A stretch of DNA of 64,000 bases from Squalus acanthias (GCA_030390025.1 CM059432.1:90460001-90524000), one strand, 5' to 3'. Positions 4,621 to 53,611 are shown, numbered from the stretch's first letter. The notes: generated from the sequence alone by a model not told the origin. A program made the numbers and translations.

Positions 4621-5364
4621 GGGCCGAAAATTGATCCCGGGACGCGAGAGTATGCACTGCGTACTCTCGCGTATTCCCACTCCAATTGCCGGTTTTCTGC
4701 ATGCCCTGCGCATGCGCTGAAAACCGGCAATTGCTCTTCCGAAAAGGGGGCGGGGCCGGAGTGCATCGCGTGCGCGCTACAGGCTGCGCGCACGCTGTGC
4801 ACTTCATGCTTTGGACGCGCAGGTAAGTACTGAAGATTTTGGAAATGTAAAAAGGAGGAGTAAGACCCGCTTTTAAGAAGGTAAGTAGTGAATTAAGTAT
4901 TTTTTTGAATTTTTTTTTACAGGTATATCTTTTTTATAGACTTTAAAGACAGGTAAGTTTATTTTTATAACTTTTTAAAAGATTTTAAATTTTTTCAAAA
5001 ATTTAATTTTTTATTTAAAATGGTTAATTTAATTAACTATACTTATTTTATTAATGTGATGGTTTTTTTTTTTAATTTAATTGAGGTTTAGCTGTTATTT
5101 TGGGGGGGTGTAAGATTCATAAGTCTCTCAGCCATGCTGTGAGACTTATGAATGGAAGATGGTGTGCTGCCATTGGCTCTAACTGAGTCACGTGATCCCA
5201 CAGCTCGCACGAATTAACTACGCCGCTGGGATACGCAAGCCCAGCACAGCTGATGTCTGGAACATCAATTTCGTGCGAGCTGGATCAGAAAAAGCATAAG
5301 CGAGGTGAGACATCGCGGGAAAGGCTTACCCCCGCGGGAACAGAGCGAGATCAATTTCTGGGCC
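4621..5364 (+). mobile_element. Harbinger/PIF-type MITE, family B (promoter motif / splice donor / hairpin type)
   Basis: TIR GGGCCGAAAATTGATC / GATCAATTTCTGGGCC; flanks AAT/ATT; same layout as 30282-31047 and 52849-53611 in reverse orientation. Confidence 0.8.
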
Positions 5365-5403
5365 ATTATATAAAATTTAGCAGATTTTAAATGTAATTGT
5401 AAA

Positions 5404-6140
5404 GGGGTGGATTTACAATCTTATGCTGGACTTGCAAAGATACTCCGTGTTCTTTGGCAGCTCGTCTAATGGAGGCATCAATATTGCGGGTTGCTGATGC
5501 CATTTAAAGGCAGCCTGCACCTCTTAAAGTCCTAAAAACTTCTCTCTACTCTTTACACTGACACACTTCCTTCTTTCATGCAGGGCCACCTTGCATGCAA
5601 TAACAGGGAGCAGGCAGCCATAGGAGGAGGGCCATGCTGCAACCATGTGATGTACCCACTTGAAGAATGGGTTATGGAGCGTGGTGTCTAGTGAGGCTGG
5701 AGGTTTAAATCATCTTCCTCCTTCCTTTCTCAATTAAATCTCACCCTTGCACATTATGCATGACAAATTTCTGGGGCTTTCAGAAGCCACTCACCTGTCT
5801 CTGCTTACCCATATCACAAAATTATAACTCTTGTCCCTTTCTTCCATTTCAAGTCCATAAGCTCCACACAGCCCTCAGGGAGCAGAAGTAAAAGAAGAGA
5901 GCAGCAATGCCACACAGGAAGCGTCATTGGACCTTGCCCTTACAGACACCAACTCAGAAACTGGCACCACGTATAATTCAGAGGGTAGTCTAGAGGGTTC
6001 TGCACTTAGGAGGGCTGTGTGGATTTCCATCAGTATTCTTATGTATGGAGGGCCCTAATATCTTCATCCGTACCCTGAACAGCAGGACTAAGATGCAAGC
6101 TGTCCCTTCAGTGAGCTGTTTCCTCAGCCATCATATCCTC
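5404..6140 (+). mobile_element. Degraded Harbinger remnant (Myb/SANT-like gene fragment)
   Basis: Near 5585 the sequence reads like ..ACNNREQAAIGGG, resembling exon 2 of the Myb-like gene at 32040. Confidence 0.35.
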
Positions 6141-6164
6141 CTGCCCATGGTCCTGCGCACTAGT

Positions 6165-6690
6165 GATGGGTGCAGGAGTGTGATAGAGTACTGTTCACTT
6201 GCCTGAATGGGTGCAGCTCCAACAACACTCAAGAAGCACAACACCATCCAGGGCAAAGCAGCCCGCTTGTTCGGCCACCCCCATCCACCAGCTTAAACAT
6301 TAACTTCCTCCATCACCCGCGTACCGTGCCTGCAGTGTGTACTTCGACAGCACCTCCCAAACCAGTGGTCCCTACCACCTAGAAGGAGTGCATGGGAACA
6401 CCGTTGCCTCCAAGTTTCCCTCCAAGTCACACACCACCTTGACTTGGAAATATGTTCTGTTTTTATTTCAGATTTCCAGCATCCGCAGTATTTTGCTTTT
6501 GACTTGGAAATATATCGCCGTTCTTTCATCGTCACTGGGTCAAAATCCTGGATCTCCCTTCCTAATGTAGGAGTACCTTCACCACATGGACTCAAGAAGA
6601 AGGCCTACCACCACCTTCTCGAGGGCAACTAGGATTAGGCAATAAATGCTAGCGATACCCATATCCTAAGATTGAATTAAAAAAAAAATC
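6165..6690 (+). mobile_element. Second-family LINE 3' end
   Basis: Tail GGGCAACTAGGATTAGGCAATAAATGC..poly-A; matches 36190-36585 and 38903-40265. Confidence 0.8.
6454..6498 (-). mobile_element. 45-bp Penelope-like fragment with 15-bp TSD
   Basis: TTGACTTGGAAATAT duplicated at 6439-6453 and 6499-6513; the insert is the reverse complement of the motif seen at about 12648-12700 and 18810-18860. Confidence 0.7.
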
Positions 6691-7036
6691 TCATGGGAGA
6701 AAGAGTCAAGTGTTTTGGGCCTTGGAATTCTGTTGTTTTTCAAGTGATTCCACCTTTTGTGAGATGACATTTCTGTTAATGTGCAAACACGGGAGGGCTT
6801 GCATGTGATTTGGAAACTGATCAGAGTCAGCCCAAACTTTTCAAGAGCTCATCTTGAAAGCTGCCATTCCTCAATGTCACAACTCCTGGGTAACAATTAA
6901 TTGTGCTGTATAGCAGGACGCTTCAGAGAAACAGCTTTATTATGAGTTAGATGAGAAAACTAGAATATAACAATCTTTCACACGGTATCAGTGGTATTCC
7001 TTTCATATATTATTTCGCCCTGATTTATTTTTATAG

Positions 7037-7156
7037 ACAAATAACTCGAACAACAGCGGATGATCAACTGCTGCATCACCAGATAGCAGCCAAGAAAATA
7101 GAAATAACAGTAGTTTACAAAAAAATAAAATTTGTGGAAAAAAAAGTTGACAATAG
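7037..7156 (+). CDS. Candidate internal exon of host coiled-coil protein gene (phase 2-2)
   Basis: TTTATTTTTATAG acceptor, AG|GTAATG donor, 120 bp open frame QITRTTADDQLLHHQIAAKKIEITVVYKKIKFVEKKVDN in non-repetitive DNA. Confidence 0.55.
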
Positions 7157-8892
7157 GTAATGGTCAGGCTAACCGGCATCCTATTGTATGTGTGTTTTTG
7201 TCATCCGCATATTTGTATAGCACATCTGTCTAACATCATGGGGCACTTAAGTAGCTTGTCTCTTTGTAATTAAGTCATTATGTACATTTGTACATGTGTC
7301 AGTATATTGGCGGTTTACTTCACATTCTAGTGTAGACACAAGTATTGCATGCATCAAACTTGGCACACAAGATGTTTTAAATATTTAACCGTTTTTAAGT
7401 GACAGTTTTAGGTTGCATTTTTTAACCCCTATTAGCTAAAGCAAATGTCTAACATTTGAAAAGAAGTCACTGAAGCATGATTGGATGTTGCTTAACAAAA
7501 AATGCACTGAATACTTATTTGGTAATGGCAATGTTTTGTTCTACTGAAACAACCTCTATAAAGCATGATGATAGTTAATCAAATATATAGGTTTACAAAT
7601 TATTTTAATTGAAAATATACTGCATTAATTGCTCGATAGCTTGAATATTAGAATTGTGGGGCTGCCACTGCCTACCTGGCTCTTTATTTCTTTTGCAATT
7701 TATAATTGATTGATATTCCCATGTACTATGCAGTTGAATTATTTATCACCTATAAACCCTTGGCTTACTAATTGTTTAATTTTAGTGGATGTAAGTGTTT
7801 TATTAAAATCTGAGTTGTCGTGTTCAGTAGTATATCAAACCTAAACACTACAGTGATGCATGGGGACGAGGCAACTGAAGTTGATCAGCTGCTGTTTGTA
7901 TTTTTATTGAAGTCCTTTTCGGCTGAAACAATAATTTCAGATTAAAGAGCTTGTTAGAATAATTTGATTAGTAGCATGTGGTTAGGCTTGTTTGATTAAT
8001 ATACCTTTTATAAACCTGACTAGAGAAGTCATTTTCATTAAAGATGTGATAACCTGATGTAACGAGAGATACCGCAGAGTAAAATGGAAAAACTTCTCCA
8101 TCACAATATCCACAATTCAATCGACTTCCTGATTTAAAACTATCATATGCACCAGGTGCTTAAGAAATTTGGCTGAATATTTGTTTTGACTAATCTATAA
8201 TATTTGGCAGGGTCAGTTAATACAGTAATGACAAAGCAAAGTACTAGACAAAAAAGCTGCTCCACAGACTTTTCCTCAACAATGTTCAGTTAATATACAC
8301 TAATAGATCACGAGTGCCATTGCAAAAGAGTGAGAGATTCAATGTGATTTCTGATGATAACCACAGTCATAAAGCACCCTAAATGCAATTGGAGACAGAT
8401 CCTGCGATCTGAGCATATGACGTTAGCGCAATTTTTCAGGATGCAGCAATAGGATTTAAGCTACCCAAATAATAGAATACTTCTCTTCAGTCTCTAACAG
8501 AATCTGGTTGATTTTCAAAATTATTTGAAGAAAGTAATGGGGACAAATTTTAAAAACTTTATTTAGGTAACATTTATATTGGGTGTTTTTTTTTTTTTAA
8601 ACCCAACTCATCTGGTGGGAATGGGCATGGGTTAGGCGGGATATTAAAATAGCGAAAATTGACATCGCACTGTTCCCACCAGAAACCTGCCAACTGCCAT
8701 TTTAATTCAGGAGCAGTCTCTGGTGGCAAACTCACCTGCCGGAAACCTCTGGCAATGTTGCCCTTTAAGAGTGTGAAGTGTTTGGATTTGAAATTTCTTT
8801 CTGGCTTTATTGAGAATATTATATAGATACATATCTATCATTTGTGTATGATATATCCGATCATTTACATATATCATAGTCACATACGCATA

Positions 8893-9010
8893 CAATGTTC
8901 CCTTTAATTTTTTTTGGGTGTGTGGCCCATTCAAAATACTGCACATGCACGGTTTTTCCCCATTTAAAAGCCAGTGAGCTGGCTGCGCGCGAGATCCAGA
9001 GTGCTGCAAA
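8893..9010. mobile_element. hAT-type MITE fragment
   Basis: Starts CAATGTTCCC; body is reverse-complement similar to 1218-1361. Confidence 0.55.
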
Positions 9011-9026
9011 GGATATACAGCACACT

Positions 9027-13408: not shown

Positions 13409-14111
13409 GGCCCTGAAATTGTAGTCTCCATGATGGCATACTTTTAGCGTACTGCTTCGTAATTCATTTGAAAGCCCCGCATGCGTAAAATCTGGAACTT
13501 GGGATCTGTCTAGGTACACCATGACAGATCATCCGAACTGCCTGAAAAATGAGTATATCTGGCTCAGAGTTGGGCTATTTGCCCAGCAATTGCCCACGCA
13601 ACTTTTACAGCTGGTAAAAGCAGGCATAGGGCCTGCTTAAATCAGCGTGAGGGTATATACAAGGCTTAAATAAAACATTTAAAAATCCAAAATGATGCCA
13701 AATGTGTATGCAAATATTGGCCTGGATTAAGATGTTTAAAATTATTTATCAAAAAATTAAATTGTTATTGAGGTTGGTGCGATGAAGGAAAATAAATTTG
13801 CCATTCAGTATATTGTTTAATTATTAAAATTCTGTACATTGTAAGATTATTTGGGGATTCCATTGCATATCAGGGGATTCCCTTTGTAAATGATTGCAAT
13901 GGAATCCTCCTTTGTCATTGGAGGACCGGGCCCACGTGATCCCAGGGGCGCTTCCGAACTGCCTGGGATCCGTGGGCCTTTATGCTGCCGTCCGCCTGGA
14001 GGCCTGAGATCGCAACTCTTCGCAGCCTGGGCGTCAGGAGGTACTTTCAGAATTGTTTCGTGGGGCAGAAACGTACTCCCGAGGTACGCCTCCGACCGCA
14101 ATTTCTAGGCC
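13409..14111 (+). mobile_element. Harbinger-type MITE, family B (diverged)
   Basis: TIR GGCCCTGAAATTG / CAATTTCTAGGCC; TSD GAT/GAT; hairpin 13855-13907; CACGTG near 13933. Confidence 0.8.
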
Positions 14112-15039
14112 GATATTTTTCCTGCATACAAAAAATTTAAAGGAGAGGGCCCTTTTGATTCCCCAAATGTATAAATGGTCTTACTCATTGAAATGCAATC
14201 AAACTGAGTGAACATATGAATTTTATTAACCAGAGTTAGCAATTGTAAAGCAATTTTATCTGAGTAGACTTTTAAAATTAAATATGCAATCACTTTCATT
14301 ACGGTTGAGGTGAACTATATGGCACAACAACGGGGTGTAACTAGGGAATTGAGAGCTGATTTTAATCCTATCCATTCAGTGGAATATGGGTGTGGATAAT
14401 TAAAATCAGCTGGGTGACCTAGCCACCGACGTCCCACCCAGACCCTACTGTTTTGAATTTTAACCCGCTCTTCTGAGGTGACAAGAACACCTGCCTGAGG
14501 CTGATGGGGTCCTTCTTTAAATATGCAGATCAGGGTCCAATGATGTCATCAGGCTTCGACTGCAATTTTAACTGGTGGCCATAGTAGGGAAGCCATTGTG
14601 GCTTTCCCGCCAGGTGTAGATAGTGGGAAGAGGATCTGGGGCCAGAAGAGTACTAAACAGGTAGGTTTATTTTTTACTTTCCTTGTGGGGTCAGGAGGAG
14701 CAGGAGTGCTCCCGAACACAAGACCCTCCCGAACTTTTCCCTGCGACTTACCACAGTGCTGGCGACTGTTCCTTCGGTGTCGGTCGGCGGCCTCTTGCCA
14801 CCCGAATTTCTGTTCCACCCGCTGGCCTGCTGCTGCTTTGCACCCTTTTTGCTTGGGCAGGTGAGGCTCGGGCGTTAAAATTGCCTGCGCCTCACACTTC
14901 TGAGTTCTTAGGGGTAGTTTGGTGATCTCCTCACATCACTCACCCGCCCGCCTGATTCCAAAATAAAATTGGGGCTATGGGATCGAAGACAGATATCTTG
15001 TGACCCTGGTAGTTACTGCAGCACAGAAAAACTTGGAAA

Positions 15040-15600: not shown

Positions 15601-16497
15601 AAAATTGTACTGGAGAGCCAGTCACATTGTCTCGGGCAGCAATTTATCATTCAGATCTGCTCAAAAAATATTTTCACTAACACCCATCCCCCACCCCAGT
15701 TTTATGCAAAACTGTGATACTTGGGTAATTGTGCTAGACACAAACTAGATGTTCATAGGATTGTTATGTGGTGTCACACTTTTGTCAAATCTCATGCATT
15801 CCTTTATGCTATGCTATAGCAGCATGTGTTAGGCTATACAATAGCATAACCCAGATTTTAACTATGTTGCTCTGTGGGTTATACCTTGTAGTAGAGCAGT
15901 CGAAGTCAGGATGGCTGTAGGTGATTTTGAAGAAAATTAGACTTTTAGATATTAAGGCCAGAATTTTCTGGGGTCCGTGCGGGCGCGATTGGAGGAGGGT
16001 CGGATGGGAAATTTGAAATATCTTGCAGCCGGTCGGGAACCCACCATCATCCTGCCCCCACGCGCATTTCCTTCGCGTGTGTTTGCTGGGGTGGCAGCGA
16101 CATGACCAGCAGAGGCGGGCAACCAAATTCAAATCATTAACAGGTAGTTGTCAGATGCTTAAGCGCCTTTTTCAGCCTACCTTTCAAATTTCCCTGGCTG
16201 CCCACGGGATTCACGCAGCTCGGGAACCACGTCTCAGCCTGAGGTGGGAGTTGAGTGCCCAATCCTCCAGCTGATTAGATGATAGCATTAAATGTACTGT
16301 ACTATAAAAGCTCCACCTCACAGCTGGTCACTTTCCTCAGGCAAAAGCTGTTGCTGACTGCATTTAACTTTCTGCATGCTGCAAATGTTTCCAGCAAAGT
16401 CGCCATCCAGTCTCTCCTTATTGTTACAAACTATCACACCATTGACAGCTTGCTCCTCTGATCTCTACTTGACCTGCGATCTATTTCATCAACATGG

Positions 16498-16943
16498 GTG
16501 CCGTTTATACTGTGTCACCTTGGTCCTCAGAATCGGACCACGATGAGCCCCAATGCCAGCAGCACCAACAACAACCCCACCAACCTTCTCAACCACCTGC
16601 TACTGCACAGGACAGAGGGCATCAGCGCAGGGCTGCACCGCGCCGGAGGCGATAACCCCAACATGGTACACAGGCAGAGGATGAGCTTCTTCAACATGAC
16701 TGAGCAGCAGTGCCAAAGGAGGCTCAGGCTATTGCGCCAGGTCATCACAGACATTTGCGCATTGTTCCCAGAGGAGCGGCGTGGACATGCCTTACCAGTG
16801 GCTGTCAAAGTCACCAGCACCCTCGACGACTTTGCCTCTGGCTCCTTCCAGGGATCTGCAGCAGCCATTTGTGGCATCTCACAGTTGGCCGCCCACAGAT
16901 GCATCACGCAGGTCACTGATGCCCTCTTTGACAAGTCAGCCAA
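16498..16943 (+). pseudogene. Harbinger (HARBI1-like) transposase, N-terminal half
   Basis: [39 protein letters not shown]. Confidence 0.85.
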
Positions 16944-18599
16944 GAGGATACTGCCGTAGACATGGTAAAGGAGGAGGTAGTGGAGATACTTGATAGGATA
17001 AAAATTAATAAAGAGGAGGTATTAGAAAGGCTGGCTATACTTAAAGTAGATAAGTCACCAGGAGCGGATGGGATGCATCCTCGGATGTTGAGGGAGGAAG
17101 TCGCGGAGGTACTGGCCATAATATTCCAATCCTCCTTAGATACGGGGTGGTGCCAGAGGACTGGAGAATTGCAAATGTTATACAGGAAACTCTTTGGTAT
17201 CCGGCACCGACGGGACCGGGGTGGTGCCGGTTGAATAAAAATTCCAGATGACGGAGAGGGTTATCTACCGAGGCTATTTTTAACCAACAAAAATAAAAAA
17301 ATCAAGAAATGTGCAGCATACAGTAATTGGGTACTCACCTACAGAATGTTGTGTTAAATGGATGGTGGAAGATGCTTGATTAAGTACAGTACTGCCAGTT
17401 GAGGGTAATCCATAACTCTTTAATTACTTAACAGTAAAACAAAACTTATAAACGACTGTATACAGTACTGTAGTTGACTACACTTATTCCAAGTCAGCTG
17501 GTTCATCAGGAATATCCATGCCAGCTGGGTCATCAGGATCATGCACTTCAACAGATTCTTCAGGCACTTCCGCTGCTTCAACTCTTTTGGAAGCTTTCTT
17601 AAACATGTTGTGGATGTCGGCTTGCTTAGTGGACTCTTACCTTTTCTGTAGAAACATGGAATGCAGAATATGGAGTTGCATAATTTCTTGGGCAGAGTAG
17701 CAAGGCTGCCTTTCAGCAAATTGGAGGATTGAAGAAAATCCTTCTGCAGCTTTAGCCCAAGAAATCTCATCCTTTTCACTTTCCATCTCACTTTCCTTTT
17801 CTTTCTTTGGATTCAAAACACTCTCAATTATTTCATCATCACTTAGCATATGCACAACAGCAACTTCTCTATCTGCATCAACCCACTGCTCGATATCACT
17901 TTCACTGAGGTGACATAGAGGGTTTGCTGGGCCTACATTTTTCACCATGCCAGCCATTTCCATTATTGTACTCTTCTTGGGACGAACATTGAACCCATGA
18001 AATTCCTCCTCTGAAGAAGAACCTTCAGCAAACATTACAGAAGGCCACAATTTGCGCCAGGCTTGCCTCAGAGTTCCAGGAACATGCAACATTATAGATG
18101 GCATCTTTAATACTGTATTCCTTCTGAAATGCGTGAATGTTGCCATCTTGGTTTATCAATTTACGTAGGAAGTCTTTCTTGTAATGACACTTTAGATTTT
18201 GGATAACGCCCTGGTCCATGGGTTGTATGAGAGAAGTTACATTTGGTGGCAAATAAATGGTGAAAATATTTCCCGAAACCAACTTGGATTCATGCGGATG
18301 GGCTCTACAATTATCAAGCATTAAAATGCATTTGCTATCTTCAGGTTTCCCTATTTTACGGAAATGTTCCCTCACAGATGGAACAAAAATATGATGGAAC
18401 CAATAGGAGAAGATTTCCTTATCCATCCAAGCATTTTTTTGATCTTTGTACTCAACAGGTAAATGCCTCACATTTTTAAATGCACGGAGATTTTTATACT
18501 TCCCAATAACAAGAAGTGGAGATGCCGGTGTTGGACTGGGGTGGACAAATGTGAGAAGTCGCACAACACCAGGTTATAGTCCAACAGCTTTATTTGAAA

Positions 18600-18636
18600 T
18601 CACAAGCTTTCGGAGCGCTGCTCCTTCATCAGGTGA
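18600..18636 (-). ncRNA. Minimal hammerhead ribozyme motif (Penelope type)
   Basis: TCAC-CTGATGA-A-GGAGC-AGC-GCTCC-GAAA-GCTT-GTGA on the minus strand. Confidence 0.65.
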
Positions 18637-19002
18637 AGTGAAGAGATGCATATAGTCACAGCATATATCGTCAGAGAACACTGCCAGATGATTACAGTTA
18701 ATCTTTCCAACTGCCCTTTATCACACCTCGGCAGAGAGATAATCACGGCAATCAAAGGTGTGGATGGTATCCAAACAGGTCAGTCAGGAAAACATTACAT
18801 CAAAGACAATGTGGCAGATGCTGGGGTCTGTATGGAAAACAGAAAACTTTTTTTGCTGGAAATCACAGCAGGTCCGGCCGCATCTGTGTAGAGTGATTAT
18901 CTCTCTGCCGAGGTGTGATAAAGGGCAGTGGGAAAGATTAACTGTAATCATCTGGCAGTGTTCTCTGACTATATATGCTGTGACTATATGCATCTCTTCA
19001 CT

Positions 19003-19039
19003 TCACCTGACGAAGGAGCAGCGCTCCGAAAGCTTGTGA
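19003..19039 (+). ncRNA. Minimal hammerhead ribozyme motif (Penelope type)
   Basis: TCAC-CTGACGA-A-GGAGC-AGC-GCTCC-GAAA-GCTT-GTGA, followed by AATAAA at 19045-50. Confidence 0.65.
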
Positions 19040-21136
19040 TTTCAAATAAAGCTGTTGGACTATAACCTGGTGTTGTGCGACTTCTCACAATAACGAGAAG
19101 TTTAACCCGGTGTGATCCAGCAGCGTTCGCACATGTTAGTACGGTTACACAATCTTTATTTTTCTTGTAACCTGAAGCATTAGCCTCACTAGCCCCAGCA
19201 AGCGTTGATTCTGGCAAAAGCCTCCAAAACAAGCCAGTTTCATTGGCATTATATATCTGTGCTGGCGACAAATCATGTTGCTGCACAATCCGATTGAAAT
19301 AATCGCAGTATTCTTCTGCGGCGTCGTGATCAGCTGATTTCTTTTCCCCGGAAATATCGAGTCGTCGTATCCCGTGCCGTAACTTGAAGCACGTTAGCCA
19401 TCCCTCGGAGAAAGCACACTTGTCAGTGAGCTCCATCCTTTCATAGAAATCCTTCGCTTTCTCGATTAGCATGAGTCCGGAAAGTGGAACACCCTCTGAA
19501 TGCTTAAGAGAAAACCACTCATAAAGCACGGTATCCAGCTCTTCAAGCTTAGGCTTACGAAGCGTACGCCGTTTCTCTACACTCTTAGATGTCTCCGAGC
19601 TTGAATAAAACTTGAGAAACTTATCCTTCTGCGATTTGATGTCGTAGATTGTTGACGAACCGATTTTGAATTCATTCATAATGTTGATACGCTTCTCTTC
19701 CCTTTCTAGTCGTTGGCATATCTCGATTTTCTGTTATAAAGTTAACACCACTCTCTTCCTTTTGCTTGGAGCAGCTTTTGGGAATTCCATAATGCAAGAT
19801 GGGGGAGATAATTCACGATAAAGATGGAGAGACACACACAAAAATGGTGGCTCGGAAGAGACTACCAGCAGCGCGGGAGACACACAGTAAAATGGCGGAT
19901 CAGAAGAGACTACCGGCAGTGTGGGAGAATTAGACTCCTGTTATTGCGGTGTTCGGACTTCCCACAGCGCCGGGAAGCCGAGTAGTGGCACTTTGGAGAA
20001 CTACCCCCACTGACTAACTTGATGTTCGCGGGAGACTCGGACTCAGCAACATTGCCGGTTATTGGGGAGGAGTTTTCGGAGTATGAATTTTGCCGGTTAA
20101 TAGAGCATTCCTGATATTTAGGTGCCGTTTAAACGAGAGTTTCCTGTACCATTGTTCAAAAAAGGGTGTAAAGATAAACCCAGCAACTACAGGCCAGTCA
20201 GTTTGACCTCGGTAGTGGGGAAGGCTTTTAGAAACGGTAATAAGGGACAAAATTAACAGTCACTTGGACAAGTGTGGATTAATTAAGGAAAGCCAGCACA
20301 GGTTTGTTAAAGGCAAATCGTGTTCAACTAACTTGATTGAGATCTTTGATGAGGGTAATGCAGTTGACGTAGTGTACATGGATTTCCAAAAGGTGATCGA
20401 CAAAATGCCACAAAGTTGAAGCCCATGCAATAAAAGGGACAGTGGCAGCATGAATACGAAATTGGCTAAGTGATAGGAAACAGAGAGTAGTAGTGAACGG
20501 TTGTTTTTTGGACTGGAGGAAGGTATACAGTGGTGTTCCCCAGGGGTCGGTTCTAGGACCACTGCTTTTCTTGATATATATTAATGACTTGGATGTGGGT
20601 GTACAGGGCACAATTTCAAAATTTGCAGATGACACAAAACTTGGAAGTATAGTGAACAGTGAGGAGAAGAGTGATAGACTTTAGGAAGACATAGACAGGC
20701 TGGTGAAATGGGCGGACACGTGACAGATTAAATTTAACGCAGAAAAGTGTGAAGTGATACATTTTGGTAGAAAGAATGAGGAGAGGAAATATAAACTAAA
20801 GGGTACAATCCTGAAGGGGGTGCACGAACAGAGAGACCTGGGGTATGTGCGCGCAAATCGTTGAAGGTGGAAGAGCAGGTTGAGAAAGCAGTTAAAAAGG
20901 CTTACGGGATCCTGGTCTTCATAAATAGAGGCATAGAGTACAAAAGTGTGGAAATTATGATGAACCTGTATAAAACACTGGTTCGGCCCCAACTGGAGTA
21001 CTGTACCCATTCTGGGCACCACACTTTAGGAAGGATGTGAAGGTGCAGAAAAGATTTACGAGAATGATTCCAGGAATGAGGGACTTCAGTTATGGTGATA
21101 GATTGGAGAAGCTGGGGTTGTTCTCCTTGGAGCAGG

Positions 21137-21835
21137 GAACATAAGAACATAAGAACATAAGAAATAGGAGCAGGAGTAGGCCAATCGGCCCCTCGAGCCT
21201 GCTCCGCCATTCAATAAGATCATGGCTGATCTGATCCTAACCGCCAATCTACTATCTATCATAGAACCATCTCCTGCATCTAACAGAATTGCACACACGA
21301 AATAGGAGCAGAATCCGGCTACACGGTCCCTGGGCCCGCTCCACTACCCACAGGGCCATGACCGATCCGAACCTAGACTCATGTCCAAATTCCTGCCCGC
21401 TCCCCGTAACCCTTAATGCCCTTTACTTCTAGGAAACTGTCTATTTCTGTTTTAAATTTATTTAATGATGTAGCTTCTACAGCTTTTTGTGGCAGCATAT
21501 TCCATGGACCTACCACCCTCTGAGTGAAGTAGTTCCTCCTCATCTCAGTTTTGACAGAGCAGCCCCTTATTCTAAGACTATGTCCCCTAGTTCTAGTCTC
21601 ACCCGTCATCGGGAACATCCTCCCCGCATCCACCCGATCCAACCCCTTCACAATCTTATATGTTTCAATAAGATCGCCTCTCATTCTTCTGAACTCCAAT
21701 GAGTAGAGTCCCAATCTACCCAACCTCTCCTCATATGACCACCCCCTCATCCCCGGGATTAACCGAGTGAACCTTTTTTGCACTGCCTCGAGAGCAAGGA
21801 TGTCTTTCCTTAAGTAAGGACACCAAAACTGTATT
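21137..21835 (-). mobile_element. CR1 3' end inserted antisense into the + strand CR1
   Basis: ORF 21379-21783 (RFTRLIPGMRG..RNYFTQRVV); (AACATAAG)n tail at about 21138-21163. Confidence 0.9.
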
Positions 21836-22226
21836 GATTGAGAGGAGATTTGATAGAGGTGTTCAAACTCATGAGGGGTCTGGACGGAGTAGATAGAGGG
21901 AAACTGTTTCCATTGGCAGAAGGTTTAAGAACCAGAGGACACAGATTTAAGGTGATTGGCAAAAGAACCAAAGGCGACGTAAGAAAAAACTTTTTTACTC
22001 AGCGAGTGGTTAAGATCTGGAATGCACTGTCTGAAAGGGTGGTGGAGGCAGATTCAATCACGGCTTTCAAAAGGGAGTTGGATAAGTATCTGAAGGAAAG
22101 AAATTTGCAGGGCTATGGGGAAAGGGCAGGGGAGTGGGACTAGCTGAAGTGCTCTTGCAGAGAGCCAGCACGGGCTCGACGGGCCAAATGGCCGCCTTCC
22201 GTGCTGTAACCATTCTATGATTCTAT

Positions 22227-22935
22227 ATCAACTTTGCCACTGATGAAGCCAGTGTTACGGAGCGAGTACTCGGCTTTGCCACTCTGGCTGGCTTCCCACG
22301 GGTGCAGGGCGGCATCGACTGCACACGTGGCCATTAGGGCACCCATCATAACCCAGGAGTCTTTGTCAACCACAAGGGCTTCCACTCCTTCAATGTGCAG
22401 CTGGTCTGTAACCATAGGAAGATCATCATGCATGTGTGTGCCAAATTCCCTGGCAGCTGCCATGACTCTTTTGTCCTTTGCCAGTCCACCCTCCCTCAGC
22501 TCTTTGCTCCTCCAACCAGACTTTCCAGTTGGCTGCTTGGAGGAAAGGGCTGTCCACTGAAGACATGGCTCATGACACCCTTGAGGAGACCAAGTACTGA
22601 GGCCCAGGAGAGATACAATGAAAGCCACATTTCCACCAGATGTGTTATGGAGCAGACAATAGGCATACTCAAAATGCGCTTCAGATGCTTTGACAGATCT
22701 TGAGAAGCCCATCAGTACGCACTAGCCAAGGTCTCCAGAATCGTCATGGTCTGCTGCATCCTGCACAACATAACGCAGCAGCGAGGATTAGAGCTGCATG
22801 AGGAGCAAGGCACTGAGCGTACAGCCTCTTCAGAGGAGGAGGAGGAGAGGAGCTGGAGGAACCTGCAGGCCAGATTCCATCAGCACCTGAGCACATTGCT
22901 GCCCGGGAGGCCATGGTTGGCCTCATCATGGCCAG
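22227..22935 (+). pseudogene. Harbinger transposase, C-terminal half
   Basis: [30 protein letters not shown] (degenerate LGDxGYP), [25 protein letters not shown]. Confidence 0.88.
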
Positions 22936-23874
22936 ATTTACTTAAATTTACGCAGCACACCCATATGGCTGCCACATGCTGCGCCAGGTTGGCACCACCC
23001 CACAGCAACACCATAAAGGATCCCTATAATGACCAAGCCATGCCTTTCACACTGACCACCATTGCTGGAGGTACCGTGGTGATAAAAGATTTTTATGGTT
23101 GACAATACATTCACGGAAACTTGACATTAACGTTGAATAGAACACCCAGGTGACTACCCTTGTGAATCTACTTGTGTGTCAGATTTCTTTACGCGTGCTT
23201 CTATGAGGTGCTTCCCCTGTGGCTTCAGTAGAGGTAGAGGCAGCCTGCTCCATATGGAGGGAGTCATTGGAGAACCTGGGTGCAGCCCTCTGCCTCTGTG
23301 CAGTCATGTGTCCAACTGTTTGGAGCAATCAAAGTCTCCAATGCAGTGACTGCACACTCCTAGATGATCCTTCAAATGCAATGTGACCATGGCTCCATTA
23401 AATATCCTGGCTGAAAACGCGTCATTAGACCAGCACCATTTAATAGGGCTGGGTAACGTGCAGGGCGGGCTTAATAGGCCCCATTAGCGCAAAGTTGATT
23501 TCTGCAGCGGATGGAAGCAACAACGGGGTCGCGACCCGCCACGCCGACCGCCCGCACCCGACCCGCCCAGGTAAAGAAAATTCCGGCCTAAGTAACTGTT
23601 TTCCAATTTCTCCATACAAGTCAATCTCCTTTGGTATTGTCCATGGTGAATTGGAGAATACAATCTGTCACTCATGCACCTGATATCCTGCTGAAGCTGT
23701 TGCTGTCTACTGCCTTGTTCCCTGTTTGATGCTAATGTGACACAATTCGACTATGATGCTCCCATGTTTCCTTGCAATCTCAAACAGCATCCAATCCTTA
23801 ATCAATATTCTAAAATAGTAGCAATAATAAAAGATCTCTTCTAGAATAAACAAATGAAAAATGGAATTCATATG

Positions 23875-34660: not shown

Positions 34661-34799
34661 CCTACCGCTGGCCTTCTGCCTTTGGAAAATTCCTCCCCTA
34701 GCACCCCCCACTCCCCCCAGCGATTAAACAGTCCAGTGCATATTGACTATGATTTACATTACTGAGTATTCCCTTATTATTATTATTTCGCCTACCTCT

Positions 34800-36585: not shown

Positions 36586-38902
36586 ATTACAAGACAAAAA
36601 CTTAAACCTTTCACTAAAAGATTAAACCAAATGCTGCCACAAAATTGAACAAACATTGCAATAACATAACATGAACTGGTAATGTGAATTTAATTTAAAT
36701 TGTATTTTAGGGCCATACAAATTTGGAATGGTCTAGTCTGTGACTGTAAATGTGTTTTTCCTGTATGGTTGGGTGACACCACAAGGTGCATTCATGTAGA
36801 TTATTTTCATAATTGCTTTTTTACAACCCATTATATTTTAGCAAAAAATAAGGCTGAGATTTAGATAGAGTTCAGTACAGAAAACAACCAGTTTGTGACT
36901 TGAAAGAAATATTGTTTTCTCACATAACTGGGGGTTGTCCATTGATAGAGCGCTCTCACTTGACCTAGCATGCATGGAGTAGGTACCTCACCATGGTAAC
37001 CTTGGTCTTAAGACTTTCAAGGCAGTAAATCATTTGAACACTTTCCATGTAATACTTTTATTGGCTGTACAATTGAAATGTCATGCTTCACGAACAGAAA
37101 AGCTAGTAATTTCTTACGGGTGATTAAACTACCTCTATAATGTACGAGCATGGATGGAACGCTAATACTGCTGGTCAAAATAAGGTTCAGTTTTTCTTTG
37201 TAAAATCCTATAGCAGGCATGCTTTCCAGGTTGCTTTGTTTTATATTGCAGTTGCCAATGTTTTGATATATTATATTCATTCAGAAATCTATTACCAGCA
37301 CAGTGTCGTAGCTAGAGAAGTAAAGCATGCCTTGATTTTTTATTTTATTTATAAATACCACTTGGTAGAAGTTAACAGAAAACCCATAACAGCCATTAAC
37401 AGCAATCAAATTATCTTTCATGGCAAAACACTTGGTATTTCTGTTAAGAGAATAGTTGGGAAATATATTACACCCTGTCTGATTTAATGATGAATGTAAT
37501 GTTGCTGAAATTTTTTTTACATTTTGTGTAAAATTAATTTTAAATTTCAGATTGCTAAAAATAAAACCGCTTCTCCTCAATAAGTAATTATTCTGATAAA
37601 AACCCTTATCAGATTTCTCAAAACTCCCAAAATGCACCTGTGATCTGCTGATCTAAAGCACTGCTCAAAATCCACCCCCACCTGACACCCCCTTTCCTTG
37701 CCTCCCACTCTCCTATCGCGTTCCACTGGAGCATCCATTACTTTTCTTTTGTCTCAATTTTACTGTCTCCTACCCCAAGCACCCTAGGTGCTTCTGCCTC
37801 ATACCCGGCCCCTTCTACCCCTTGCTCCTTTCCTGCCCTGCCTTGCCCAGCTTCCTCCACCCTACCTTACCCTGATGCCTCCTGCATGCAGCAGCCCACA
37901 GCCACCATGCAAAACACTCCCACCCTACCATACCACTTCCCACCTGACACAAATAAGGCAAAGAACCTGAACACAAATGAGCCAAAAAACCTAAACAGAG
38001 AAGGAATAAATCAAAATAAAAACAAGAGACAGAAGTAAAAGAGCAGAAGGGGATAGAAGAGAACAGAAAGGGAGAGAGAAAACTAGACAAGAAGTGAGAG
38101 ACAATCAGAAGAGCAGACAAAGAAAGAACTCATAATATACCGATAAGACAAATGCTTCCTCTGACTTTCCATTGGCTCAGTCATAGGAGATACACTAGTG
38201 ATACAAAATTATTAAACAATTGAAAAGACACTGACCCAAACACCGACAACTAAAGAGAGTTGTTTCAGCCCTCAAAACATGCCAATAAATTTGATATTTC
38301 AAAACTAATTTTATTAAGATATCTGTCCTCATTTTCTAATGAAGTAGAAGTTGGAATATGTGTATGTTGGATCAATTTCTTCTGCTGCTTTTATATTATT
38401 GAAGCATTCAGTAATTGAATTGTTTCCTATTTATGCTGAGTCATTTTGTTTGTATTGTGGGTCAGATTTGATGACCGTGGGAAAACAGTATGCAATTTTT
38501 ATGCATATGTAGTTGCTCCAAACTGCTACTGCGTATGTGTAAATCTCACACGCGTAGTTACTGCAAAGTTTGTCAGTATGGATGGAACTTTTCCCGATGT
38601 CTATGGAAAGTCCAAACATTAGTGGAATTGGCTTGCTGGCTTGTACAAGTAGGCTAAGTGGTCAACTTGCCTACAGCTTGAGCCAGGCCCAATACCAAGT
38701 GTCACTGGTGAGAGATGCTTAGCTTTGCCTTTAGCAGTATTTTTTTAAATTTTATTTATTCATGGGATGTGGGCATCGGTGCCTGCCTTTTTATTAAGTT
38801 GTAGCACTGCTGGAAAGCCTAGGATTTGTGTTAAGTGAGGAGAAATAGCAAGTGTATCCTTATTTATTCAGTCGAGCCCATTTCCAGATGTGAAGGGATA
38901 TC

Positions 38903-41845: not shown

Positions 41846-42601
41846 GACCTGGAATTTGCAGTGGGTAATGACGGCGAACTGTCAATGTTCGCCGTCATTA
41901 CCCTTCTGAAACTGACCGCAACTTTGGGTTTTAGCACATGCTCAGCTAAATGCGGAAATCCTGAAGTTGCAGTCAGTCATTCACTGCTCCCACACTAACT
42001 GCACTGTGGACCCTGTCCCCCCACCCCATAGCTGGCAATCAGTGATCAGTGTAATCAGTGACTCTGACGAAAACTTGGGCTTTTCCGTGGTAATATCGCT
42101 GTTAAATACCCCACTAAATGTTAAGCCTTGTTGGAATAGGTGTAACTGGGGTTTTAACAGCGTATTGACTGGTAAGTAAATGTTCTGGCCCTAAAAAACT
42201 AAATTTTATATTTGTGGAGTGTCAAATTTCTCCATTATGATAAATTACAAGTTTTAAAAAACTTCAAAAAAAATTAAAGTTTGTTCATGGGATTTCAGCT
42301 TCTACCTTATCCCCATGTGAAAGTCCCAATCTTTATTTCGCTCCCTGTAACATTTTTAAAAAGTCTGAATAAAAGCAGCTTCTCATTTCCTGGTTTCCTG
42401 TCTGTGAGAATTCTTCAATGTGATTGGCTGCGTAGACAGCTTGTTGACATCATTGCAGCATCGCACTAGAAATCCCTATTTCAGAGCGCTAAAATCAATT
42501 AAACGTTGAAAAAGGCAAATATCTTACCACAGCTGTGGGCAGCTTTCTTTGGGGCCAGCGGTGAGTGCCTTTGCTTCGCCGCTGACCGCAACTTACGGGC
42601 C
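41846..42601. mobile_element. Harbinger-type MITE, family A
   Basis: Ends GACCTGGAATTTGC / GCAACTTACGGGCC; flanks AAT/ATT; homologous to 2955-3703. Confidence 0.75.
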
Positions 42602-44664
42602 ATTACCTATGTGTAGCCAGCAGGCTAGCTGAAAAAATATTTTGGTTCAGTTACACCATTTTTTCTGATTGCTACATTTTTCCAACTTTTAGTTTCAGTT
42701 CTGATTTGTTGCAGCTAAAAGATGTTGAAGATTTTTTTTTGAATGATTTGCTTCAGTATCTGCTTTTTTATTGGTAGATTTTGATCACTAGTGATAGTAA
42801 GAGTGTTAATTTGTCATTTTTTCCATATATGAAAACAACTGCAATTACGTGTTTGTGTGTGTATAAGACAGAGCCTAAGAGACGCTAATGTGTAACACAG
42901 GAAGTGTAAAGTGACCATAGGAAATGCTCAGAGTCATACTGTATGCTATGATTCTGGGTATTTTCTGCACTCTGATTCCATATATTTTGGCTTCAGTATT
43001 TTAGAGTACTTTCCTAGAAAATTTTCAACGCCTCATGATCTACAGAATATCTTCACTGGCCCTAACATCTAGGTAAATTTTGGTAATGTAGCCTGGATAA
43101 CACAAAGATCTTTCTTTAAAAATTGTTTTGGCTATTGGATTGAAGCAAATTTATTGAACAATGGATGATAAAGTAAGTAAATAAAAGTAATTTCATACAT
43201 ATACATTTACAGTAGATATACTATACTAAACCTCAAGAGGAAATTTATAAATGATTGCAATCTCTATAGTAAAGTATTATTTAAAGTAAACTACTATTAT
43301 AGTTAACCTTTATATACGCAGTTATTCTTCTTGTAATTTTGCTAGTTGGCCTGACTTTGAAAGTTCCAAACCAACTCAATAATTTGAGTCGTCCACACTC
43401 GTAAATATTCATCCAACAGTTATGGATTTGACTAACTTTCAGTTAAATTCAAAAGTATCTGTCAGTCTTGCACATAACTGAGCAAATCATACAGTGTGTT
43501 TTTATTTGAATTTGGCTTGGCTTTTCCTACCAACCTATAGCCCCGAAGGCAGCCAAATAAGTATTTGCAACTTTTGTATTGAGTTACGCTGGAGACATGA
43601 CTTTGAAAGTAGCTGGTTTTTAAACTCCTTGGGAGTGAAATTCATCTTACGGGCAATAGCGAATCGGCAGCTTGTTTTACACTCTGCATGATTTTCCTTT
43701 CCATGTGTAAAACGGCTGCTGATTTGGCACTCCCATTTTGTGCTACTGCCCAAGACGAATTTCACCCCCTTTATGTACTGTGACTGAATTCAAGGAACCA
43801 CTACCAACCTAAAACTAAAGAAAAAGGCTCCATTTTTATCGCAGTATGTATAATATTACTAGCAGGTCTATCGTGGCATTGGTAAGTTTAAGGATGCTGT
43901 TTTATAAGGACATGAAGACTATATCATGTAATGTACAATGTATTGTTCTGCTGCTGAAGAATAGGTGTGTGTTTCTTTAATCATACAAGTTGTAATTGTT
44001 TGCATTCTTAAAGTCAGCGCTCGGGTCAGTTATAGGTCAGACAGCTCTGTTTTCTTTTTTAATGTTTAAGCCGACAGAATTTCATAAAAACACTTTGTCA
44101 CAATGCCCTTTAGACAGTCTTCTAGCAAGTATGCATCACATCCCAGGAGTTTGGCTTCATCGTCTACAATAAGTCTCACCTGGAGCTAGAGCAAGACATG
44201 ACATTTGTAGATGGCTAGCTTTGGACTGTGTGGGAAAGGGGGGGGGGGCCCTCTTTCTTGCCACCAGATTGGTTTGCAGAACTGGTTAGTGCTAGATTCA
44301 TATTCTTGGTCTGATATTGGTAGCCATTTTCATCATCCTATATGCTTGCCTGTTCATGAGATTTCTACAGTTGAACCAGCTACACCAGTGGTCTCCCCGC
44401 AGGCTATCATTATTCCAGTAAATGGAAGGGTTTCAGCTGTGGATGTGAGATAGTAGCCCCAAGTGTTAAATATTCTCCAGGAGGGCTTGTTACAGACACC
44501 ACCTGCTCAGTATTAGTAGCATTCCACCCATCATAGGAGGTTCCACAACTAAACTTAATGACTTGGATATATCACTTGCATGGACAAAACCAATAAATCA
44601 CCAGGGATGGATACTATATACGTGAGGGTGAGTCTGAGGTTGGTCACGTAGTGATATCTCTCAT

Positions 44665-46626: not shown

Positions 46627-46811
46627 GGCCTAGAAATTTGTCTCGGGCGGTGGCGCAAAATTGGCAGTATCGGATCGGCCGCCCTTTATTCGCAGCACCT
46701 GATATTTGGTTCCATTGACTGCAATAGACTGAATATCAGGTGCTGCATATAACGGGCGGCCGATCCGATACCGCCCATTCTGTGCCACCGCCCGAGACTA
46801 CTTGCTAGGCC
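46627..46811. mobile_element. 185-bp fully palindromic Harbinger-type MITE
   Basis: GGCCTAG...CTAGGCC; TSD AAT/AAT; arms pair almost to the centre CCATTGACTGCAATAG. Confidence 0.88.
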
Positions 46812-48320: not shown

Positions 48321-48404
48321 CTTCAGAAAAGAGAAGACACGATACAGAGACAACAGAATGAAATCCTTTTCCTGCAACAGAAAAAAGATGTGTTCCTTGC
48401 TGAG
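48321..48404 (+). CDS. Internal exon of host coiled-coil protein gene (phase 0-0)
   Basis: TTGCAG acceptor, GAG|GTATAG donor, 84 bp: LQKREDTIQRQQNEILFLQQKKDVFLAE. Confidence 0.72.
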
Positions 48405-48725: not shown

Positions 48726-48866
48726 CTTGAAGCAAAGGAACATAGGATTTACCATCGTCAACCAGAACAGCAAATCAGGAAGACTGAAGCCCATTGCAGG
48801 ACAGTTCAGCAAGAACAGAATGAACTAGATGTTGACTGCAAGTCACTTCAGCAGGCCCAACATAAG
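48726..48866 (+). CDS. Internal exon of host coiled-coil protein gene (phase 0-0)
   Basis: TTCCTTTCAG acceptor, AAG|GTATTC donor, 141 bp: LEAKEHRIYHRQPEQQIRKTEAHCRTVQQEQNELDVDCKSLQQAQHK; in frame with the previous exon. Confidence 0.72.
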
Positions 48867-50805: not shown

Positions 50806-51675
50806 TCTATATAGTCTTGCTATAAAGAGCAAACAAAGGAAATCCTACTGTCTTGTTGATGCAGAACAAACAGACATTCTCTTTTGGGGTGAATTTCCTC
50901 CAGGCTTCTCTCGCTCCCCCGCCATAATTTACCAAATTATGTTCATCAAAGTTATGGCAGTGTAGTAGGAAATGCCCCGAGGAAATTCCTGGCATTTGTC
51001 ATTAGCTTGGTAGTACTGGGTGGAAAATAATGTAGTCCCCAGCATTATTACTCCTTAACCTTTAATACATAATTAACCCCCTCTTTCAAACTGTACAATG
51101 CCACATTTTAACTTTTGGTTACAATTATGTTGTGATTCTGGCATTGCTGCAAACACTAGATGTGTATTATACCTGCACCATTAACATTCAAAGTTTTTCA
51201 ATGAGGCTCTTGTAATGGAGGCACATTAATATAGTTGTGAATTTGTGCATGGTGACCAGTTTTGCTAACCTGATATTGTTTAAACAGCTAATCACGTTCT
51301 CTTCAAATTTCCCAATTTTTCTCCAATAGCAAGGTAGTTGATCTTGCTGGATTTCGAGCATGCTGTTTTTGTTTAGAAACAGTGTGGATTTCTTTAATTC
51401 ATCCAAAGAGTTGCAGCAAAGCACATAGAGGCTTATTAAGAAATCAGGTGCCAGTGTTACCTAAAATGGCTATTGAAAATGAAACATTTCTAGCAAAAAG
51501 GTTGCTGGATGAAGACTGAGACGTGTAATGGTTTTGTTGGATGGAAAGAATTAGCCAGACGTTCTCACTAAGGAGGCTGACTAATGGACTGGATTGGATT
51601 TATTTTTGCTCCTGGGTAGTTGACATGAGTAGATTTTGCAACTGTTTGTGTCTATTAATCCTTGAATTGTTTCAG

Positions 51676-51735
51676 GAACATCTAACAAATCCACAGCTTC
51701 TGCTGCCTGGAGAGCACAATGATCTCGACTGCTGA
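51676..51735 (+). CDS. Possible terminal coding exon of host gene
   Basis: TTGTTTCAG acceptor; phase-0 frame EHLTNPQLLLPGEHNDLDC*; no independent support. Confidence 0.25.
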   Translation, partial: EHLTNPQLLLPGEHNDLDC

Positions 51736-52424
51736 TTATTGCACAACAGTCAGAATGCAGCTTTGATTGGCTGATGTTAGGTATGCATGCATTTGTGTTA
51801 GCCAGCTGCCTGTTCTCTTTCTTCCCATAGCTGGGTGCTTCACTTAGCAGATCCAAACAATAATTTACAAAATTTTCTCCCCAGTGGCAGGGGCCCCTAA
51901 ATAGGCAACTGCTCCCCTTTGTTAGGAGTCTGGGAACATAGCGACATGCATTCAGTTTTAATATAATTTTAATATGGACAACAGACAGTTGCTAGGTTTG
52001 TCCTCGTCACTGAACTACAGATTATAGCATTTTGTGTTTGGTCTTTCTATTCCCCCCACCATACCACATTTTCAAGTTCCTTAACTGTTGTCTTCCCAAA
52101 CAGAAATCTTTGTTGATTTGTTTACTAGCGCAAGCTATTGTGGCCTAGAGTACTGTTGTGGCTTTTATTAATTATACACTGCAATGATTAGACTTGAGAT
52201 TCAGTTTTGCAGGAAGGAATAAGGTCTTGCCAGATTGTCCATTCTCCCCTTCAAAACTTAACTGCTGCTCCACAGTTCGACATTGAACAGCTCAGATAAG
52301 AACAGAAATAAAGCTTGGCCAGTGAGGGTATAGTTGAGGATACAGTGCTCTATTAATATAGAGTTTATTTGAATTCCCAGATGATTTCTCCATGTTCATA
52401 GGTTAGCACTTCTAGTACTTAAAT

Positions 52425-52765
52425 ATATTTTTTTCAGGGGAGGGGGAATTTCCTCTGGTGGAGGAATCATAACAAGGGGACATAATCTTGAAATGAGAGC
52501 TAGGCCAGTTAGGAGTTAAATCAGGAAGCATTTTTTCACACAAAGGGTGGTAGAAATCTGCAACTTTCTCCTCCAAAAGGCTGTTGATGCTTTGTCAATT
52601 GAAATTTTCAAGACTGAGATTGATAGAGTCTTGTTAGGTAAGGGTATCAAGGGATATGGAGAAAAGGCGGGTAAATGGAGCTATTGTACAGATCAGTTAT
52701 GATCTAGTAGAGTGGCGGAGTAGGCTCGAGGGGCTGAATGGATTATTTCTGTTCCTATGTTTCTA
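52425..52765 (+). mobile_element. CR1 3' end
   Basis: TRGHNL..KHFFTQRVVEI..GIKGYGEKAGKW. Confidence 0.85.
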
Positions 52766-52848
52766 AAAATAGCAAGAGAGACAGAGATCACCAATCTGAA
52801 GTTGAAAGGATGCAAAGTCTCTTGCTTTAGATTTTATTTAAACTTATT

Positions 52849-53611
52849 GGCCCAAAAATTTGGCTCCCTGGCTTCCCGCGGGTGCAAGGATCGCGCGCGC
52901 ACCTACCTACCGCACCTGCCGTTGACCTCTGGGCCCACGGGGACTTCAGCTCCTGGGCCTCCTGCAGCTGCCGGCACGCAGTGCTTGTGTATCCCAGGGG
53001 CGTAGTTAGTGCGATGCGTCCCCTGAGATCACGTGGGCCATGGAGAGCCAATGGCAGCAGACCATCTTTCATTCATAGATTTGACAGGAAACCTGTCAAA
53101 TCTATGAATTGAAATCGGCCCCAAAACAACACCTAAACTTCAAATAAACTTAAAAAAAAACATCACATTTTTAAAATAACTATAAGTTAAATAAATTAAC
53201 TACTTTAAACAAAAATTTAAATTTTTGAAAAAATTAAAATACTTTTTAACAGTGCTAAAAATAAACTTACCTTTCTTTAAAGTATCTAAAAAAGATAAAC
53301 CTGTTGAAATTTTTTTAAATTGTAATTAATTAACCACTTACCTTGTTAAAAACGGGTCTTGCGCCTCCTTTTTAAAAACGCAGCTTCTTCCATACTTACC
53401 TTCCCGGAGAAACCTGAAAAAAAACCTAAGTTCGCTGCGTGCGCGCAGCCTCTCCCGTGCACGCGGTTCACCTCTCAACCCCTCCCTTCACGAGACCGGA
53501 AGTTCCGGTTTCCCGCGCATGCGCAGTGCATGCAGGAAACCGGCACTTCAGGAGGCCTTACGGGTGAGTACACAGCGCGTACTCACCCGGCAAGTGCCGA
53601 ATTTTTGGCCC
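52849..53611 (-). mobile_element. Harbinger-type MITE, family B
   Basis: TIR GGCCCAAAAATT / AATTTTTGGCCC; TSD ATT/ATT; close copy of 30282-31047. Confidence 0.9.

Follow-up and report, generated by a model that had tools for sequence, protein, structure and literature searches.

The DNA analyzed here is a 64-kb window of the genome of the shark Squalus acanthias (GCA_030390025.1 CM059432.1:90460001-90524000), to which all element comparisons below are confined, and its main subject is a set of miniature inverted-repeat transposable elements, or MITEs, of the Harbinger type, several of which combine promoter-type motifs with sites reading as 5' splice donors. These elements are interspersed with a host gene encoding a coiled-coil protein, of which one 47-aa exon product shares 91% identity with a Pristiophorus japonicus PMFBP1-like protein and 74-83% with three other shark proteins. 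Because the window holds only two host exons, the region upstream of position 48321 is, provided that the orthologous gene models hold, a single host intron exceeding 48 kb. The two donors of the host gene that lie in the window score 0.7-0.8, which is weak. The in-frame exon 48321-48404 is possibly a cassette exon, since two shark orthologues have it and two others (P0005, P0006) do not. The host exons and the MITEs under study, with their target-site duplications (TSDs) and terminal inverted repeats (TIRs), are as follows.

48321-48404 and 48726-48866, plus strand: exons of the host coiled-coil gene (PMFBP1-like/EEA1-like by source names), the only host-matching exons in the window
4621-5364, plus strand (sense to host): Harbinger-type MITE of the three-donor subfamily, with TIRs, TSD AAT/ATT, 73% identical to 30282 and 52849
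30282-31047, minus strand (antisense to host): three-donor subfamily, TSD AAT, donors 30830-30838, 30772-30780 and 30700-30708, outward donor 30334-30342
52849-53611, minus strand (antisense to host): three-donor subfamily, TSD ATT, donors 53394-53402, 53336-53344 and 53265-53273
23875-24615, minus strand: diverged clan member, TSD ATG, a single strong donor at 24283-24291
13409-14111, plus strand: diverged clan member, TSD GAT, promoter-type motifs, no donor
2955-3703, minus strand: added element of about 750 bp with similar layout, TSD AAT, cAMP-response element (CRE) and CCAAT, no donor
11548 to about 12262, plus strand: added element with similar layout, right end decayed, no donor
41846-42601, plus strand: added element with similar layout, TSD AAT/ATT, one moderate donor CTG/GTAAGT (GT at 42172)
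53870-54702, no strand assigned: MITE of another Harbinger-type group, TSD TGT, facing donors with GT at 54299 (plus), 54345 (minus) and 54372 (minus)
14353-14975, no strand assigned: MITE-like element of the 53870 group, no clean TSD, donor-like GT at 14661 (plus) and 14751 (minus)
27241-27690, no strand assigned: truncated MITE-like element of the 53870 group, boundaries drawn by eye, donor-like sites at 27447 (plus) and 27604 (minus)

The first five of these elements were described in the initial annotation, and all are present with the ends assigned there and with GG(G/C)CC..AATT-type termini. From their sequence we assign them to the non-autonomous PIF/Harbinger (Tourist-like) MITEs because of their TIRs, their TSDs, their target flanks and their lack of a coding match. 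The TIRs start with GG(G/C)C in all five, as in coding Harbingers, and similar termini are found on the coding element 15956-23588, which bears a DDE_Tnp_4 domain. Regarding the 3-bp TSDs, they are exact in four elements (GAT, ATG, AAT, ATT), the 4621 copy having AAT/ATT with one mismatch. Target flanks of the form A-N-N-Y [TSD] R-N-N-T, read by eye, occur on both sides in four of the five elements and in 9 of the 14 Harbinger-type insertions in the window, and agree with the target consensus AAACACCWGGTCTTT given for zebrafish Harbinger3_DR (PMC3016246). The elements are short (703-766 bp) and no Harbinger coding sequence was detected in any of them when six pieces of Harbinger protein taken from the window served as tblastn queries. 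All four features tested for PIF/Harbinger MITE membership (TIR, TSD, target preference, short length without coding sequence) were thus found.

The five do not form a single family, as had been proposed, but a loose clan with 56-93% identity: 30282 and 52849 are 93% identical, both are 73% identical to 4621, and 23875 and 13409 share 56-64% with the rest, block-shuffled sequences giving 55+/-2%. Under relaxed BLAST settings they still form one linked chain (E 1e-23 or better). The three added elements of about 750 bp (2955, 11548 and 41846) are linked mutually (E 1e-76 and 1e-21) and have the same layout; what connects them with the five is limited to AT-rich patches and the positions of motifs. 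Eight clan-type elements, including the 93% identical pair, hence lie within 64 kb, and Harbinger-type segments without coding sequence account for about 17% of the window. In the second group (53870, 14353, 27241), the multiple alignment, with a column identity of 33% and 43%, is uninformative.

The sites that read as splice donors are arranged in the 4621 copy as follows.

4820-4828, plus strand: donor-consensus site 1, CAG/GTAAGT
4878-4886, plus strand: donor-consensus site 2, AAG/GTAAGT
4950-4958, plus strand: donor-consensus site 3, CAG/GTAAGT, then a T-rich run; conserved better than the other two and shared with 23875
4901-4922, plus strand: strong acceptor-like tract, in 4621 only, with a crude score of 11.2 versus -2.5 (30282) and -1.4 (52849)

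Apart from small coordinate slips, the donors previously reported at 4820, 4878 and 4950 on the plus strand and at 30830, 30772, 30700, 53394 and 53336 on the minus strand are present, and 23875 and 13409 have indeed one donor and none, respectively. The third donor of 52849, placed at 53286, actually lies at 53265-53273, and the first donor of 30282 reads AGG/GTAAGT. The stacked cassette had been presented as a common layout; it occurs in three of the five copies, or three of eight with 2955, 11548 and 41846 included, and in one subfamily only. Consensus donors sharing the strand of the promoter motifs and downstream of them number three in 3/8 clan members and one in 2/8.

This donor enrichment is a real and statistically strong feature within a known element class. 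The strong-donor counts of 4621, 30282 and 52849 were each reached by none of 1000 dinucleotide shuffles, the donor and acceptor scores being derived from crude matrices built on vertebrate frequencies and not from MaxEntScan. Over the 64 kb, MAGGTAAGT was observed 11 times versus 1.25 expected (maximum of 4 in 100 shuffles), and all 11 occurrences are inside Harbinger-type MITEs belonging to at least two unrelated groups. Using a MITE mask that comprises 20 segments of non-coding Harbinger type (10.8 kb in total), obtained from TIR/TSD scans and in part by eye, 13 of the 15 top-scoring donor 9-mers fall inside the mask, which covers 17% of the sequence (P 7e-9); without the related copies 30282, 52849 and 23875, seven of nine still do (P 3e-5). 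Moreover, an unbiased 7-mer scan of 12 non-redundant elements longer than 400 bp, from which 30282 and 52849 were excluded as near-relatives of 4621, ranks ACTTACC/GGTAAGT first, with 6/12 elements versus one occurrence in 46.8 kb (P 5e-7, prior to correction for about 8000 k-mers). GGTAAGT is present 16 times in the 10.8 kb of MITEs, never in 6.4 kb of coding Harbinger and once in the remaining 46.8 kb. Neighbours mismatched to U1 small nuclear RNA at +5 or +6 are not enriched (MITE versus elsewhere, GGTAAGA/C/G 5 vs 12, AGGTAA[ACT] 1 vs 16), and the tolerated variants GGTGAGT and GGTAGGT show mild enrichment in MITEs. Fourteen of the 16 GGTAAGT sites lie 200-430 bp inward from the end behind them. 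Finally, the three GTAAGT are identical at 18/18 positions between 4621 and either 30282 or 52849, for a background of 72-74% (P 0.003-0.004).

The only top donor 9-mers outside the mask are CAG/GTGAGT at 5794 and 8735, on the minus strand; they are held by repeat-like segments (5430-6000 and 8540-8790) that are possibly further Harbinger debris. Several additional splicing features were considered and set aside. Paired with the acceptor-like tract 4901-4922, site 1 would delimit a mini-intron of 100 nt, leaving an exon of 30 nt up to site 3; a conserved internal mini-intron was rejected, the acceptor being strong in 4621 alone. Mobile recursive splice (ratchet) sites were rejected as well, with acceptors before the GTAAGT sites scoring -5.6 to 1.9 and the sole strong acceptor, that of 4621, preceding a weak GT and not a strong donor. 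Close to the far end, three copies have an outward-pointing donor (scores of 5.7, 7.3 and 6.4), but with scores below 5 in the other five of the eight elements its conservation is weak. A strand asymmetry between U1 sites and polyadenylation (polyA) signals in the three-donor subfamily (0 vs 4-7 hexamers) was also rejected (P 0.09-0.28 with composition kept).

Toward their ends, the elements carry palindromes and promoter-type motifs, for which the 4621 copy can again serve as reference.

4642-4672, no strand assigned: left subterminal palindrome, z -5.9, with arms like the presumed Harbinger3_DR Myb 9-mer at 8/9 positions
4683-4733, no strand assigned: second palindrome, enclosing the NRF1-type GCGCATGCGC (4708-4717)
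5115-5153, no strand assigned: internal hairpin, z -7.7, with two-sided changes in 7/20 pairs over four copies
5172-5194, minus strand: CCAAT box (5172-5176) and E-box CACGTG (5189-5194)

Of the promoter-type motifs claimed previously, GCGCATGCGC occurs at 4708, 24519 and 53515 and CCGGAAGT at 30932 and 53496, and both CCAAT and CACGTG are found in all five elements. The GC box, also listed, is not conserved (7/10 and 5/10 positions). The names NRF1, ETS, NF-Y, E-box and CRE designate matches to consensus sequences that we take to be those of these factors. Among the eight clan members, CCAAT lies 174-199 bp from one end in all cases, accompanied by CACGTG in five and by TGAC(A/G)TCA in two, and an NRF1-like 10-mer is situated 63-89 bp from the opposite end in seven. 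At their left ends, donor-bearing copies have a CpG observed/expected ratio close to 1, versus 0.45 window-wide. The elements are built as chains of local inverted repeats; the four that were tested contain 5, 7, 4 and 1 hairpins, versus 0.65-1.3 in shuffles. In the left subterminal palindrome, 6 of 12 pairs have two-sided changes across seven elements, and pairing there and in the internal hairpin is kept via compensatory changes, which template correction could produce without selection. Of the 11 near-matches in the window to what we presume to be the Myb-binding 9-mer of Harbinger3_DR, nine are within these MITEs, seven of them in the subterminal palindrome.

Coding Harbingers are also present in the window, in decayed form, with DDE_Tnp_4 transposase remnants at 22338-22703 and 33762-34661.

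15956-23588, plus strand: decayed coding Harbinger with nested inserts, TSD TAA, TIR GGCC.GAATTTTC, DDE_Tnp_4 remnant
31221-34698, no strand assigned: decayed coding Harbinger, TSD TAG, with a Myb-like gene (plus) and a transposase gene (minus) in convergent orientation

The former has TIRs like the MITE termini and no strong donor in its ends. It is split by CR1-type LINE (long interspersed element) pieces and by a Tigger/pogo-like element with CENP-B_N, HTH_Tnp_Tc5 and DDE_1 domains, whose frames are at 18025-18573 and 18984-19733. The latter matches DDE_Tnp_4 (E 1e-19 and 6e-11) and Myb_DNA-bind_5 (E 0.008, below the curated cut-off); its Myb-like gene is spliced (donor 31811, acceptor 32039) and its transposase is without the N-terminal part. 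For an autonomous partner of the 700-770-bp clan, there is TIR likeness only, without internal similarity to the coding-element ends compared. Among other repeats, a Harbinger transposase remnant (62190-63620) is broken by an 893-bp MITE (62294-63186, TSD AAA) akin to the left end of 31221, a MITE (55313-59559, TSD TTG) is interrupted by a CR1-type LINE whose open frame (55977-58985) is 1002 aa long, and very short hairpin-like Harbinger-type elements of 100-190 bp lie at 46627-46811, 43632-43769, 38459-38575 and 50886-50990. Rfam gave no matches at gathering threshold. Pattern scans returned three metagenome loci, whose likeness extends over only 15-41 nt of the motif region, and one unaligned bacterial-genome locus; all were treated as chance.

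These elements had been interpreted as a possible portable promoter and first exon. As regards anatomy, a promoter and first-exon-like description is fair, because the motifs and U1 heptamers are real, non-random and conserved beyond background in one subfamily; the proposed splice target at 7037, discussed below, is by its sequence no host coding exon. Our own tentative reading, which receives slightly less than half of our confidence, is that of a promoter/first-exon architecture retained for the benefit of the element itself. As described in the literature, a Myb-like protein together with a DDE transposase would move the MITEs in trans by acting on TIRs and subterminal palindromes. The CpG-rich stretch inside each end carries housekeeping-promoter motifs, NRF1/ETS-like at one end and CCAAT with E-box or CRE at the other, and the U1-complementary GGTAAGT sites, located 200-430 bp inward of an end in several lineages, would be real 5' splice-site signals, giving the order promoter, first exon and intron start. 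Action via U1 is suggested because the enriched letters are those of the U1 complement and because their spacing fits a promoter followed by a first-exon donor, whereas selection on the MITE itself is suggested because subfamilies are collinear and coding ends are without the motif. Selection on MITE masters may then keep the donors, and the look of an active CpG-island promoter could leave the ends open and unsilenced for the transposase; we propose such promoter mimicry, keeping the ends accessible, as a hypothesis. Any chimeric splicing into exons of the host would occur at sense copies as an occasional side effect and would not be the purpose. Of note, internal MITE sequence tunes transposition in mPing (PMC9921582). 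That several independent shark Harbinger MITE families have converged on promoter mimicry, with NRF1/ETS/NF-Y/E-box sites in CpG-island ends and perfect U1 sites spaced as for a first exon, and exploit host transcription and the recruitment of U1 to stay unsilenced and mobile, is a broader proposal that we deem unlikely.

Several observations weigh against the architecture we favor. The AT-rich part, regarded earlier as a mere spacer, is the most conserved stretch between 4621 and 30282 (84-90% over element positions 301-450); in the suggested comparison of donors and factor motifs with spacers, GTAAGT does exceed background in one subfamily, but the AT-rich center is better conserved than the promoter motifs, and NRF1, CCAAT and E-box are each non-significant in this pair. 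NRF1 and E-box match counts are inflated because these palindromic motifs sit in palindrome-rich DNA. An escape from CpG decay or methylation is not supported, because the 4.3-fold excess of CpG transitions between 30282 and 52849 is within the range of controls (short interspersed elements 5.8 and 8.9, LINE 2.4). The full -3..+6 donor footprint is conserved just marginally (24/27 and 25/27; P 0.01-0.05), and among the eight clan members three are donor-free and two have one donor, yet all transposed. The MITE mask was partly drawn by eye, after the sequence had been read. In mPing, the internal effect followed GC content and no specific motif (PMC9921582). Lastly, a DNA transposon needs no RNA to move.

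The octamer AGGTAAGT could instead be a DNA-level site for the Harbinger Myb-like (trihelix) protein or for a host factor aiding the transpososome, its donor likeness being coincidental, an alternative to be taken seriously although we hold it less likely. The GT1/Myb/SANT domain of the ORF1 protein recognizes about 6-8 bases, and its binding is to subterminal regions (PMC9921582, PMC4055405), and the text of the Codebook paper, its motif figure aside, contains no MSANTD motif (bioRxiv 10.1101/2024.11.11.622097). DNA is the simplest target of selection on a MITE, this one octamer makes up 13 of the 16 GGTAAGT sites, and AGGTARGTTTA, found at six places across two unrelated MITE groups versus 0.08 expected, exceeds the needs of U1; in 53870, 14353 and 27241, moreover, donor-like sites face each other on both strands. 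However, GGTAAGT is absent from the 6.4 kb of coding Harbinger, including both ends of 15956-23588, which have to bind the Myb-like protein, its sites are internal and not subterminal, and the subterminal palindromes already offer a separate candidate Myb site with the presumed Harbinger3_DR 9-mer (9/11 near-matches). The letter-by-letter enrichment is that of the U1 complement, and a T-rich run typically follows strong donors, which also counts against a protein site. Also to be taken seriously, although unlikely, is that the MITEs are passive relics, that is to say deletion derivatives of a convergent two-gene Harbinger with non-coding first exons whose inherited promoters and donors are now neutral. 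Because the genes of 31221-34698 are convergent, each of its ends must hold an inward promoter; other MITEs do resemble coding ends (62294 vs 31221, 69% over 262 nt; 53870 vs 15956, 62% over 88 nt), the facing donors of 53870 look like two first introns fused, and a weak CAG/GTAGTT at the transposase-side end of 15956 aligns with a donor of 27241. Yet the comparison of coding ends in the window revealed no parent for the 700-770-bp clan, none of the three coding ends examined has a donor scoring above 3.1, and 4621 and 30282/52849, with all 18 donor letters kept, are collinear end to end and therefore diverged as MITEs.

It appears very improbable that the host gene has exapted the 4621 copy to serve as an alternative promoter with a first exon joined to 7037 or to the true exon that follows. 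The copy is sense to the host, as annotated, its donor strand and both host exons being on the plus strand, and it has three perfect donors versus the weak ones of the host gene. The presumed target displays exon-like signals:

7037-7156, plus strand: segment earlier called a host exon, with a good acceptor (about 99th percentile) and a modest donor

This segment, read in phase 0 of the host intron, however meets a stop at codon 9 and has no match in any of the four shark orthologues of the host protein, so that it does not qualify as a host coding exon. Furthermore, the leader upstream of the donors has no open phase-0 frame into exon 48321, there is no sign of special conservation in 4621, and the same donors exist in antisense copies; four of the five copies bear donors, one of them in sense and three in antisense orientation to the host. 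Chance combined with local duplication in AT-rich DNA is hardly credible either. Donors 2 and 3 of the stack share a T-rich lead-in and may be duplicates, and 30282 and 52849, being near-identical, are not independent; but the enrichment persists without the related copies, as given above, covers groups without detectable similarity and holds up when just the central region is shuffled (P <= 0.001).

Splice donors are not something that a non-coding DNA transposon should require, and still no k-mer is shared more strongly by these Harbinger MITEs than the U1-complementary heptamer. Should the sites be used, transcription and U1 would be tied to the way in which cut-and-paste elements move or evade silencing, and sharks would possess a dense supply of alternative first exons; with the convergence considered above, MITEs would seed portable promoter and first-exon units across shark genes with their giant introns. 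Should they be protein sites, they would represent an internal recognition motif for a vertebrate Harbinger Myb-like protein. No description of splice-donor/promoter cassettes in vertebrate Harbinger MITEs, or of shark Harbinger MITEs, was found among the literature matches listed, in a search with subscription journals, Dfam and Repbase outside its scope.

Known gene traps of other classes include PGBD3/MER85, which consists of an acceptor and a polyA site, and long terminal repeats, which supply promoter-plus-donor first exons, for instance in mouse MT, and derive from retroelements requiring their own transcript. Among MITEs, the Tourist-like mPing/Ping/Pong elements of rice (PMC2836001, PMC4055405, PMC9921582) are, like those described here, short TIR elements with a 3-bp TSD and an extended target preference. 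They are mobilized by a Myb-like ORF1 protein and a DDE transposase, their internal sequence modulates transposition, and some MITEs supply promoter sequence or exons to genes. The shark elements differ by their length (700-770 bp), their vertebrate host, their CpG-island-type motifs and their U1-complementary sites at a regular distance from the end. Zebrafish Harbinger3_DR and Harbinger3N_DR (PMC3016246, PMC2836001) share the target consensus that fits the flanks here, and their ORF1 protein binds the element ends; the TSD is mostly AWT in our elements and not CWG, and a splice-donor cassette is not described for Harbinger3_DR in the accessible text of these papers. Coelacanth LatiHarb1 and its non-autonomous families (PMC3787270), Harbinger-Snek (PMC8437027) and newt Harbingers (PMC5741667) are abundant, with many short derivatives, and coding copies of these aquatic-vertebrate expansions are transcribed; the available parts of these studies do not address promoter motifs or donors of non-autonomous copies and leave sharks outside their scope. 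L1 and Tigger gene traps (PMC10901741) resemble the elements of Squalus acanthias in being mobile elements with signals for RNA processing, of a kind that can capture or start host transcripts. They rely on an acceptor and a polyA site, whereas the shark MITEs, as judged from their sequence, are non-coding DNA elements that pair promoter-like ends with donors.

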